Shown: one piece after another, positions 30,601 to 33,600 of the stretch
How the letters are laid out: every line of letters begins with the position of its first letter
How positions within the stretch are numbered: position 1 is the first letter of the stretch
Assembly (NCBI RefSeq): GCF_006345805.1
Contig: NC_043004.1
Location: forward strand, 90,458,001-90,522,000
Direction of reading: 5' to 3'
Origin: Octopus sinensis
Lineage: Eukaryota
DNA: 64,000 bases
The notes under the pieces: model-generated
Seen by the model: the letters and a program-made list of their open reading frames with translations, nothing else
Databases searched by the model: none
What the model was told of the DNA's origin: nothing
Made by a program: the position numbers and the translations under genes

Positions 30601-33600
30601 TACTCTCTCCTCAACAAGAATAAAGGCTCTTCTCACCTACATGTCTCTGTTCACTCCCAAACAGCTTTACTGTGTATCCTGGGTGCATTTATAGTGACAC
30701 CAACACTAGTGGAATTGTCTTCTACCCTGTAAAACTAGAGAGTCCCCTATCAGTGTGTTTGTTTTGTTCCCTCGAGGCTCCCTTTGTAACTGAGGAGCAG
30801 AACACAAGAGAACAGCAATAATAAAAGAACAAGGAAGGGGCAAGAGTGTGATGGTAGAAACAGAATGATAGTGATAAGAGAGTAGTAGAGGGGCTGAGAG
30901 AGTGAAGGATAATGAAAGTAGAGGATAAATGGTAACAGTGAATGATAGATGTTGATACCAGATAGCCTGGTAGGGTGCCAGGGAATATAGGAAAGCTGGA
31001 TAGTATGTGGAGTGCATGCAAATCTGATGTGATACTCCTTATACACATATACATACACACGTATATACACACACCAAAGTGTAGTAAATATTTTGTTTGC
31101 CTATGAAGTAAAATTCCTGAGCTTTACCATTGCCATGTCTTTGTGTTCAACCAAACTCTGTCAATTCTGTCTTCAACTGGATTCCTACTTGATATCTCAG
31201 GTGAAAATCTATGCGTTTCTCGCCGGAAGAAAGATACTAAGCGTGAGTTAATCGACTAAGCATGGTTTTCGTGCTTTTGTTCTCCAAGAATTTGGAGCTC
31301 TTTGAGCACTGTCACCGAAATTGGAATTTTACATTTGCCACACACTATTAGTATTGAATCTAGCATGTTCTATTTTGTTAGTGTTTCCAGTTAAAGAAAG
31401 AATTAATAATAATAATAATAAATGAATAAAGTTACTAATCTAGTCACAAACCTACCTTTTGAGGCTTACAATCAGGTATATGCAAAAAAAGAAGAAAAAT
31501 ACTAAAAAAACAATGCATGGTATTGGAATTGTTATTTGAAACTAAATGTATAAGAAAAATGAAAAAAAAAAATATTCTGGTAAATTCTTGATGCTGCAAT
31601 TAAACTGCCATGTTATGAGAATGTAAGAAAAAGCATGTTTGATTTGAAACACATCTTACTAATATTAACTGCACACAATATACCTGCACATTGTGAACAT
31701 TAATATAAAATTGCTGTTTGATGATAGTTAAGCATTAAGCAGACTAAAGTTTGAGATTAAACTGTGTGTATCTGAGTGTGTGTGTGTATGCATGCACATG
31801 CGTGCATATGCCTTGCATCACAGCTGATAATGAAATTAATACGCTTCCTGGTTTTGAAAATATGACATAGCTACAGCACGTTATGAATCTTGGTAGTCCT
31901 TAAGTTTTTGATGCCAAGGCTAACCCTGGGCAGCAAGCTAATTAATACATCTGGAGGATTAAGAGGAAAATGTTTTCCCATCAAATTTTATGACACTTTT
32001 AATGGCGCAGTTTTAAAAAAAATTCATTTGACAGCCTAGAAAGAAATGTATATATATATCTCATCTACAAACAAGTTGGTGTTTAAGAATGTGTTTCAGT
32101 AAGTGATAATAGGTGGACAGAGGAAAAAAGCAAATTTCACCAAATGTAAGCAGTTTGATTTTATATTGAAAAGAATTTTATAACTGTTTAGGTGTACTAG
32201 TTACCTACTTATAAATTTTCTGTGAAAGACTAAACATCTACCTCAAAATCATTTTGATGTGTAACATTAGCTTACTGGTCATGTTTAGGTTTTGTGTCAA
32301 AAACCTTGGTACTACCAATTGTAATTAATAAGGAATATATGGTACTCAGATGTCTTTGATATTTGTATTTCTTATTGAATTTTTTTATTTTTTAACTGTT
32401 TCACATCCATTTTTCCATGTTATCATTGATAGGGTGGATCTTTTTTTTTGTTGTTTAAACAGTGTTTTTTCCATTACAGCTAAGTGTTTTTTCCCCAACC
32501 CCTTACAATGGACCACTCAAATATCAAGTAGTAGTGAAATTAGTGGTTAATTAGGCAATCTGAGTCAAGCCGGTATTTTTAGTTAGCGCTCTAATGTTCT
32601 CTGCATTAGATATGTAGGCAATATTGTTTTTCATGCAAATAGCATCTCTGAATTATTGTATTTCTAAATGATGTACTTTCCTACTACTAGCCTTTTACAT
32701 TTATGTAGTGTAGTGATTCTTTCATCACTAATTCACCAAATAGTGGGAACTTTGTTTTCCTGATGAAGTCAGAATAGTACTGAAACATGTACAGAATTGT
32801 CAACCATACATCTCCAAAACTTTTTAAAAATGGAAATGATATTCTTCATTGATGAATGTTTTTTTCTCATCACATTTATTTCTAGCATTTTTTATAATAT
32901 ACTTAATATGTTAACTTTAATTTACTGGTCAGAGTAGTGCCCCAGAGACACAACATAATGGATGTAGCTGCAACTTGAATTTATGGTCTTGAGGCTAGCA
33001 ATCCAGCTCCTTTCACTTTCCATTCAGTGTTATATTGAATACCATATTAGCTTTTGACTTCTTCAAAATGAGTGATGTAGTAGAATCAATGTTGGCATAT
33101 TCTGTACATGGAATCTTAGAAAATTAACATAAATAGATTGTGAGACACACTGATGCAATAGATAAATAGATGAAGGGATTATAGATATAAGGATCGGACT
33201 GGAGGGACTATAGATATAAGGATAAGTTAGTGTTAACATTTAATTTGCAAATCGTTAAAAACCTAACTAGAAATAAATGTGCAGTGAATAAAAAACCCTG
33301 AGTTAATGGCTAATATCTTCAATTTTTCCATAGGTATGAGGGAAGAGAGGCAATAATTCTTAATATGTTTGTCTTATTCTTATCTTGTCAATGTAGCATA
33401 TCCTTCTCTCACAAATTATGATTAAATAAAACAAGGTTACAATTGGTATGTGAAAATGTGGGTGGTCGTCCTCATCATTTAAGATCCACTTTCCATGCTG
33501 TCATGGGTTGGATGGTTTGACTGAGGACTGGCAAGGTTTTTACAGCTAGATGCTATTCTAAACGCCAACCTCCCCAAAAGTGTAGTAGGTGCTTTTTACA

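Follow-up and report, generated by a model that had tools for sequence, protein, structure and literature searches.

A conserved optional exon at the box-7 junction of FAK in octopus and other molluscs

Splicing control of FAK autophosphorylation has so far been treated as a vertebrate invention, in which an insert termed box 7 is spliced in shortly past the autophosphorylation site Y397. Do invertebrates possess an exon at this junction, and what might it do? The question is raised by the FAK locus of Octopus sinensis, which occupies most of a stretch of 64,000 nucleotides (NCBI RefSeq assembly GCF_006345805.1, contig NC_043004.1, positions 90,458,001 to 90,522,000 of the forward strand; subsequently designated the window). 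An earlier note, made from the letters of the window alone, had singled out a 42-nucleotide (nt) segment in the intron behind the Y397 exon as a candidate regulated cassette exon. Here we report that this segment is a real, conserved and optional FAK exon. According to Corsi 2006, boxes 28, 6, 7 and PWR are all without a counterpart in non-vertebrates (PMC1570463), and our literature search, which covered few subscription journals, returned no paper on an invertebrate exon at the box-7 junction.

The FERM-domain exon of the window (13150-13365) matches Octopus vulgaris FAK to 100%, and residues 215-952 of an annotated isoform of 1210 residues map to plus-strand exons between 3562 and 63104. 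The first kinase exon and the region of the 42-nt exon each have one match in the genome. The elements surrounding the exon are compiled in Table 1. Acceptor (...gatatctcag) and donor (gtgagt) are as the earlier note had described them, and the segment is open and of phase 1-1 like its host intron, whose length of about 16 kb also proved right. Inclusion of the exon converts the junction residue from Ala to Pro in octopus, and the insert starts 15 residues past the Y397 equivalent (Y475 of protein P0001). The basic patch that had been placed beside Y397 retains its basic character in other species, but is near this tyrosine rather than adjoining it. Since the host intron contains eight open YAG...GTRAG candidates of phase 1, the sequence alone provided a good guess for the 42-nt exon and not a proof; only 31201-31242 has a GCATG just past its donor. 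The other candidate exons (28001 or 28010 to 28036, 32113, 33891, 42745) are in no octopus isoform examined and lack a proximal GCATG. RNA folding of the exon region yielded a z score of -1.77, with 9 of 200 shuffles being equally stable.

Table 1. Elements at and around the optional FAK exon; positions refer to the window.
Feature	Position	Strand	Remarks
Upstream FAK exon, 57 nt	27042..27098	+	Y397-equivalent DYAEI motif and Y407 equivalent; phase-1 end; matches P0001/P0131
Host phase-1 intron, 16,073 nt	27099..43171	+	Position of the vertebrate box-7 intron
3' splice site	31181..31200	+	Purine-interrupted pyrimidine tract, 13/20 pyrimidines, without UGC close to AG
Alternative cassette exon, 42 nt	31201..31242	+	14 residues, 5 K/R, net +3; single genome copy
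5' splice site GTGAGT	31243..31248	+	Last exon base C, non-consensus
Donor-proximal ACTAA and GCATG	31255..31264	+	GCATG at +18; likely Rbfox-type intronic enhancer
Further four GCATG (31363, 31515, 31633, 31790) and several ACTAA	31363..31794	+	Last GCATG in microsatellite-like sequence
First kinase-domain exon, 98 nt	43172..43269	+	GEGQFG glycine-rich loop; one genome match

Use of the exon is documented by annotated isoforms. The identical insert peptide is present in 3 of 7 isoforms of O. vulgaris, in 5 of 6 of O. sinensis and in 7 of 10 of Octopus bimaculoides, four records of the O. sinensis set being common to O. vulgaris. In the cuttlefish Sepia pharaonis, one of three isoforms carries a 14-residue version, in which 10 of the 14 residues are identical to octopus. 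These isoforms are automated annotations and their counts do not equal abundances; still, the finding that three Octopus species and a cuttlefish each have long as well as short forms bears out the proposed cassette exon. Altogether, both forms were found in 13 mollusc species. In 12 other named molluscs only the short form was seen among the one or two proteins examined for each, and the exon is skipped in all 17 unnamed mollusc-like proteins from Logan. As such contigs keep major paths, the latter result hints at a minor or tissue-restricted form.

To what extent is the exon shared among molluscs? Three homologue searches and three cluster look-ups provided the mollusc proteins, a sample that included neither chitons nor Nautilus nor any named squid. 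In 33 named species, comprising 4 cephalopods, 16 gastropods and 13 bivalves, the junction carries an insert that is 10-15 residues long and has a net charge of +2 to +8. Runs of at least three lysine or arginine (K/R) residues occur in 30 of these species and runs of at least four in 24, while the other residues and the length vary, the exon measuring 30-45 nt outside cephalopods. The property conserved in mollusc inserts is the basic patch. In most snails and bivalves, inclusion makes the junction residue a Ser/Thr right after the basic run, whereas it is Pro in cephalopods. The motif S/T-x-R/K is present in the inserts of 26 species and [RK][RK]-x-S/T in those of 28. The idea of a cephalopod-specific feature had to be abandoned, as the insert is common to cephalopods, gastropods and bivalves and other inserts exist in a ribbon worm and a sea anemone. 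In two species the basic insert is longer, by ~5 residues in P0458 (Crassostrea gigas) and by ~10 in P0286 (Bradybaena similaris), likely because another donor is used or one more small exon is included. Several annotated gastropod isoforms skip the Y397 exon (P0017 and P0182 of Patella vulgata; P0188, P0191, P0193 and P0194 of Haliotis), representing predicted FAK forms without the autophosphorylation site; P0193 keeps the basic exon.

The 3' flank of the exon is rich in GCATG, and the five positions claimed for this motif were all confirmed, the first starting at 31260 (for the others see Table 1). Downstream (U)GCAUG promotes exon inclusion, a positional rule derived from work in vertebrates, flies and worms, and Rbfox is generally neural and muscular across bilaterians. 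Four GCATG are located within 400 nt of the donor, which is the highest number among 20 mapped exons, and none of 2000 dinucleotide shuffles reached this number (mean 0.32). TGCATG, which accounts for two of the five sites, is not enriched (one in 400 nt, two in 560 nt; shuffle fractions 0.08-0.16). The ACTAA motifs that had been noticed nearby are enriched, with four copies in the 400 nt past the donor (shuffle fraction 0.0085). QKI-type control was considered and dismissed: the full ACTAAY motif occurs only once and is not enriched (shuffle fraction 0.28). Within-window repeats were absent over 30291-33461, in agreement with the claim of a repeat-free downstream flank, but the fifth GCATG is located in a microsatellite-like end with a weak second match in the genome. 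Elsewhere in the window, seven GCATG crowd into 450 nt at 50109-50541, far inside an intron of the kinase domain. This site adjoins a duplicated SINE-like piece and has no mapped exon, which shows that GCATG can cluster without a mapped exon nearby as well.

A metagenome scan provided 68 loci, most of them animal FAK-like, of which 22 with the Y397 exon followed by an intron were examined. The GT of this intron is at exactly the octopus position in 18 of the 22 loci (fish locus L040 included) and displaced by one base or by a few codons in the other four. Such shifts of the intron past the Y397 motif were observed in the arthropod-like loci L010, L017, L019 and L050. Two bivalve-like loci possess a 30-nt K/R-rich exon followed by the donor GTGAGT: in L022 (2411-2440) it encodes GRKRKSRKKK and has a GCATG at +20, in L023 (3670-3699) it encodes GRKRRVRKKK and has a GCATG at +15. 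Both acceptors are purine-interrupted, like that of octopus, and the intron ahead of the exon is devoid of GCATG in L022 (353 nt) as well as in L023 (539 nt). None of 19 other octopus donors has a GCATG at +7 to +30, and the chance of such an arrangement is ~0.012 per locus. Conservation of the flank between octopus and these two loci holds for the GTGAGT donor and the position of the proximal GCATG, while the DNA alignment of the three mollusc exon regions contains little beyond the donor. The retention of a donor-proximal GCATG at +15 to +20 supports Rbfox-type control. From these sequence features, enhancement of exon inclusion by an Rbfox-type factor appears quite likely, and we consider it likely that inclusion is enriched in neural tissue, muscle or both. 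An Rbfox homologue exists in O. vulgaris, and NeuN-like staining has been observed in ganglion neurons (PMC5736919). A search of the genome with Pfam Fox-1_C gave no match, and control genomes were likewise without a match, which deprives this negative of weight.

The exon sits at the junction of vertebrate box 7, as had been proposed: human box 7 is inserted at the same residue, and fish locus L040 contains a 21-nt box-7-type exon (1113-1133) in the same phase-1 intron. Its flanks comprise a long C/T tract upstream, the donor GTAAAA and a first GCATG at +783. Human and fish box 7 have an S-Y-G-x-x-E core in common. By alignment, the mollusc inserts bear no likeness to the box-7 peptide: against human and hagfish box 7, mean z scores of -0.45 (cephalopods), 0.58 (gastropods) and 0.81 (bivalves) were obtained, which is a weak test. 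In hagfishes, the 7-residue insert was present in one of three Eptatretus and in none of five Myxine proteins. Outside vertebrates and molluscs, inserts at the junction were found in the ribbon worm Lineus longissimus (21 residues, 5 of 7 isoforms) and the sea anemone Actinia tenebrosa (13 residues, 2 of 3 isoforms), their exon status being deduced from paired isoforms rather than DNA. No insert was detectable in 149 arthropod or arthropod-like proteins (of 151 arthropod-type proteins examined, P0485 and P0488 were set aside as intron read-through frames), nor in the few proteins sampled from Lingula (2), Owenia (2), Lamellibrachia (1), Tubulanus (1), Saccoglossus (2), Branchiostoma (1) and Ciona (1). 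The annelid-like locus L020 has a complete intron of 211 nt without an open candidate exon. Candidates had to have a GTRAG donor or a K/R content of at least 35%, a filter that the true box-7 exon of fish does not pass, and absence in the longer arthropod introns therefore rules out only a mollusc-like exon. In the spider Argiope bruennichi (P0258, P0259, P0261, P0265, P0268), an optional 12-residue insert precedes the Y397 motif directly, which is the position of vertebrate boxes 28 and 6.

Does this exon share its origin with box 7? Inserts aligned between phyla gave mean z scores of -1.2 to 0.8. The differences in length, charge and flanks together with the patchy distribution favor several gains over one old exon. 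Of the two origins that the earlier note had left open, independent or ancestral, the former is hence favored by sequence and distribution, with the sampling between groups being thin; in our judgment, an origin independent of vertebrate box 7 is probable. That neural exons are gained repeatedly within one coding region is reported to be common in bilaterians (10.64898/2026.09.05.749416), and hotspots of convergent exon gain are mentioned in PMC8797185. In the main text of both papers FAK/PTK2 is not named. The former covers O. bimaculoides, and its supplements may list the exon together with tissue data. Splicing has been reported to be highest in neural tissue of octopus, in a paper whose available text does not mention FAK and whose supplement text likewise contains no FAK in the 24,410 characters searched (PMC9699675).

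What could the insert do? In autoinhibited vertebrate FAK, the strand containing Y397 is held between the FERM domain and the N-lobe of the kinase. For autophosphorylation, FAK normally has to cluster on membranes containing phosphatidylinositol 4,5-bisphosphate (PIP2) via the KAKTLRK patch (PMC7072507), the octopus equivalent of which is KPKNLRR. Box 7 raises activity and permits autophosphorylation in cis (PMC1570463, PMC6025627), for which the longer loop past Y397 has been proposed as the cause (PMC12420805). An insert of 14 residues would lengthen the tether between Y397 and the kinase domain and provide at least as much slack as box 7, and a longer linker would ease autophosphorylation of Y397. 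By analogy with box 7, higher autophosphorylation or autophosphorylation in cis is slightly more likely than not. Because charge is what molluscs conserve, an added electrostatic role is indicated. Binding of FAK to PIP2 is largely electrostatic (PMC7072507, PMC4505859), and in a simulation study the binding of acidic lipid was mainly nonspecific and electrostatic (PMC4505859). Most simply, the basic run would dock the kinase end on acidic lipid; that it helps docking on PIP2-rich membranes is a prediction that we make with somewhat more doubt than belief. A basophilic kinase could switch off docking through the Ser/Thr beside the basic run in 26-28 of the 33 species, and tuning by phosphorylation of this kind is a tentative and rather doubtful extension. 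In AlphaFold models of the long (P0002) and the short form (P0123), the kinase lobe is folded in either case, and the insert belongs to disordered linker rather than to a folded domain. As a whole, we lean modestly towards the reading that molluscs possess an optional basic exon, distinct from box 7, that is controlled by Rbfox in nerve or muscle, eases autophosphorylation of Y397 and adds a charged patch for the membrane.

A number of observations weigh against this reading. A read check over 31085-31400 in four runs yielded one unspliced contig of 182 nt in a single run and no exon joints; this check drew on 20 listed runs with a FAK exon, all assembled as contigs, none recorded as RNA and none labelled for tissue, and its outcome speaks neither for nor against the exon. 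The reality of the exon is thus supported by conservation and by automated annotations. Three caenogastropods (Littorina, Babylonia, Nucella) have inserts of net +2 to +3 lacking a basic run, and comparison of inserts between mollusc classes gave mean z scores of only 0.7-2.0, the similarity being mostly compositional. As heterodont/unionid bivalves are closest to L022 as well as to L023, these loci do not provide two independent tests; their GCATG counts over the whole locus are not enriched (equalled in 30 and 23 of 200 shuffles, respectively), and in octopus, L022 and L023 alike the donor-proximal GCATG is not preceded by T. Although presumably homologous, box 7 of human and that of hagfish score a z of only 0.4, and dissimilarity is consequently no argument for excluding common ancestry. 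As regards the mechanism, the evidence on box 7 is second-hand, through papers citing Toutant 2000, 2002, and the AlphaFold linker has a predicted local distance difference test score (pLDDT) below 50 in both forms at a predicted template modeling score (pTM) of 0.41, so that the two models do not differ and carry no information on mechanism.

One alternative is that a single ancestral exon, pre-dating the cnidarian-bilaterian split, gave rise to box 7, the mollusc basic exon and the inserts of Lineus and Actinia, which then diverged beyond recognition, while arthropods and certain lophotrochozoans lost the exon. Intron and phase are indeed the same in all four groups, all inserts are followed by S, T, A or P, the residues expected if a phase-1 xCN codon is shared, and the Actinia insert resembles those of molluscs in being basic (+4) and of similar length. 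Short exons also lose similarity fast, as the human-hagfish comparison illustrates, and outside molluscs and arthropods the sample amounts to one or two proteins per lineage. However, lengths of 7, 10-15, 13 and 21 residues, charges from -1 to +8 and the unlike flanks of the fish and mollusc exons speak for separate exons. A common exon would require losses in arthropods (0 of 149) and in the annelid-like lineage of L020, perhaps also in brachiopods, hemichordates, amphioxus and tunicates (0 of one or two proteins each), and the recurrent gain of neural exons that 10.64898/2026.09.05.749416 describes as common in bilaterians also counts against it. We consider this scenario unlikely.

Other explanations concern the role of the insert. 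It might serve as a tag for localization or phosphorylation, for example for nuclear import or as PKC/PKA site, in place of a tether or membrane element, and leave autophosphorylation unchanged. The runs of at least four K/R in 24 of 33 species, the frequent S/T-x-R/K and [RK][RK]-x-S/T motifs (26 and 28 species) and the Ser/Thr created at the junction in most snails and bivalves would suit such a role, and a more nuclear location has been reported for human FAK forms with box 7 (PMC12420805). However, peptides rich in K/R often contain such short motifs by chance alone. K-[KR]-x-[KR] is the core pattern of nuclear import signals; it is found in only 15 of the 33 species and in none of the four cephalopods, in which the junction residue is moreover Pro and not Ser/Thr. 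In our view, such a tag is quite unlikely. Conversely, the basic insert could act as a brake by folding onto the acidic Y397 segment or the kinase lobe, thereby dampening autophosphorylation or Src recruitment, which is the opposite of the box-7 effect. Immediately before the insert, which is +2 to +8, lies a strongly acidic segment with a net charge of -7 in octopus and -6 in human, and box 7 is neutral to acidic, so that the charge conserved in molluscs points to a different job. Yet added length at the box-7 site activates the kinase in vertebrates and the linker is disordered in both AlphaFold models, which thus lend no structural support; a brake is very unlikely. Finally, the exon might represent tolerated splicing noise or an annotation artefact without selected function, as the missing junction reads in the four runs checked, the 17 of 17 skipping Logan proteins and the 12 molluscs with the short form only could suggest. 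However, the three Octopus species have one and the same peptide, of which 10 of 14 residues recur in Sepia, frame and charge are kept in three classes, and bivalve-like DNA retains both the donor and the proximal GCATG. This conservation largely refutes noise, which we regard as highly improbable.

The reading of an Rbfox-controlled basic exon that eases autophosphorylation may be extended to all inserts at this junction. The intron behind the Y397 exon would then be an animal-wide slot for activation switches, equipped with an exon of their own in cnidarians, ribbon worms, molluscs and vertebrates. Any added tether length in this slot would allow FAK to phosphorylate itself without clustering in nerve and muscle, and the mollusc insert would be an Rbfox-controlled, polybasic, Ser/Thr-flanked membrane switch kept since the Cambrian. 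We put this joint reading forward as a doubtful, albeit possible, generalization. The surprise is limited, given that automated annotations already contain the exon and that exons are known to be gained recurrently. Nonetheless, four unrelated-looking natural inserts at the box-7 junction constitute a ready test of tether length versus sequence, a question that bears on neuronal FAK signalling and also on small-cell lung cancer, in which box-7 forms of FAK have been reported (PMC12420805).

Further peculiarities of the octopus locus concern other parts of the gene. A second optional exon of 39 nt (17879-17917, phase 1-1, AAG acceptor, GTTTGT donor) lies earlier in the same linker and is skipped in P0128; the nearest 800 nt contain no GCATG. 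At about this junction, Patella, Haliotis, Littorina, Mytilus and several arthropods likewise have optional inserts, which differ in sequence. The exon at 19945-19975 (IPRTSRS) contains P-R-T-S in Octopus in place of the P-R-T-P found in Sepia, Patella and Mytilus (P-S-I-P in human), and the linker PxxP that vertebrates use for the Src SH3 domain looks lost in Octopus; another PxxP is located 8 residues before DYAEI. In the linker between the kinase and FAT domains, an in-frame exon of 432 nt (62673-63104) is skipped in P0001 and P0003, which removes a PxxPxxP stretch. Two introns contain fragments resembling reverse transcriptase (52323-52682 and 55765-56672), which we take to be of the LINE type, and a mariner-like fragment is found near 14926-15437.

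How does the exon compare with known systems? With the neural microexons controlled by eMIC/SRRM4 it has in common that it is short, keeps the frame and has a weak-looking 3' splice site, but its 42 nt exceed the usual 3-27 nt. Hallmarks of eMIC microexons are a UGC near the AG and a long UCUC tract (PMC8797185). Assignment to this class was rejected on account of exon length, of 13 pyrimidines in 20 positions, and of the lack of a TGC in the 45 nt ahead of the exon and of a long UCUC tract. The exon resembles Rbfox-enhanced cassette exons in being short and in-frame and in having downstream GCATG motifs, one of which is near the donor and conserved in position, and differs from them in that the proximal sites lack the 5' U. 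It also exemplifies how a putative intronic enhancer may keep its position over great evolutionary depth, here between cephalopods and bivalves, which split ~500 million years ago. In the manner of the Type I convergent tissue-specific exons described by Mantica et al. (10.64898/2026.09.05.749416), exons that look unrelated occupy a single site of an old gene in lineages far apart, here with 10-15 residues in molluscs, 21 in Lineus, 13 in Actinia and 7 in vertebrates. The FAK case reaches a cnidarian and is known from sequence, whereas that class is defined by tissue specificity. Closest in position is box 7 itself (PTK2 exon 16; neuronal isoforms FAK7 and FAK6,7), an exon included chiefly in brain and also in testis. 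Both are in-frame cassettes in the same phase-1 intron, both inserts begin 15 residues past Y397, and in both cases long and short forms coexist. They differ in size (14 residues in octopus, 10-15 in molluscs, versus 7 residues or 21 nt), in net charge (+3 in octopus, +2 to +8 in molluscs, versus -1 to 0), in that the octopus insert lacks tyrosine, and in the flanks, with a GCATG right past the donor in octopus versus the C/T tract and the first GCATG at +783 in fish. Unlike box 7 in length and sequence, the mollusc exon is its counterpart in position and, by analogy, probably also in effect.

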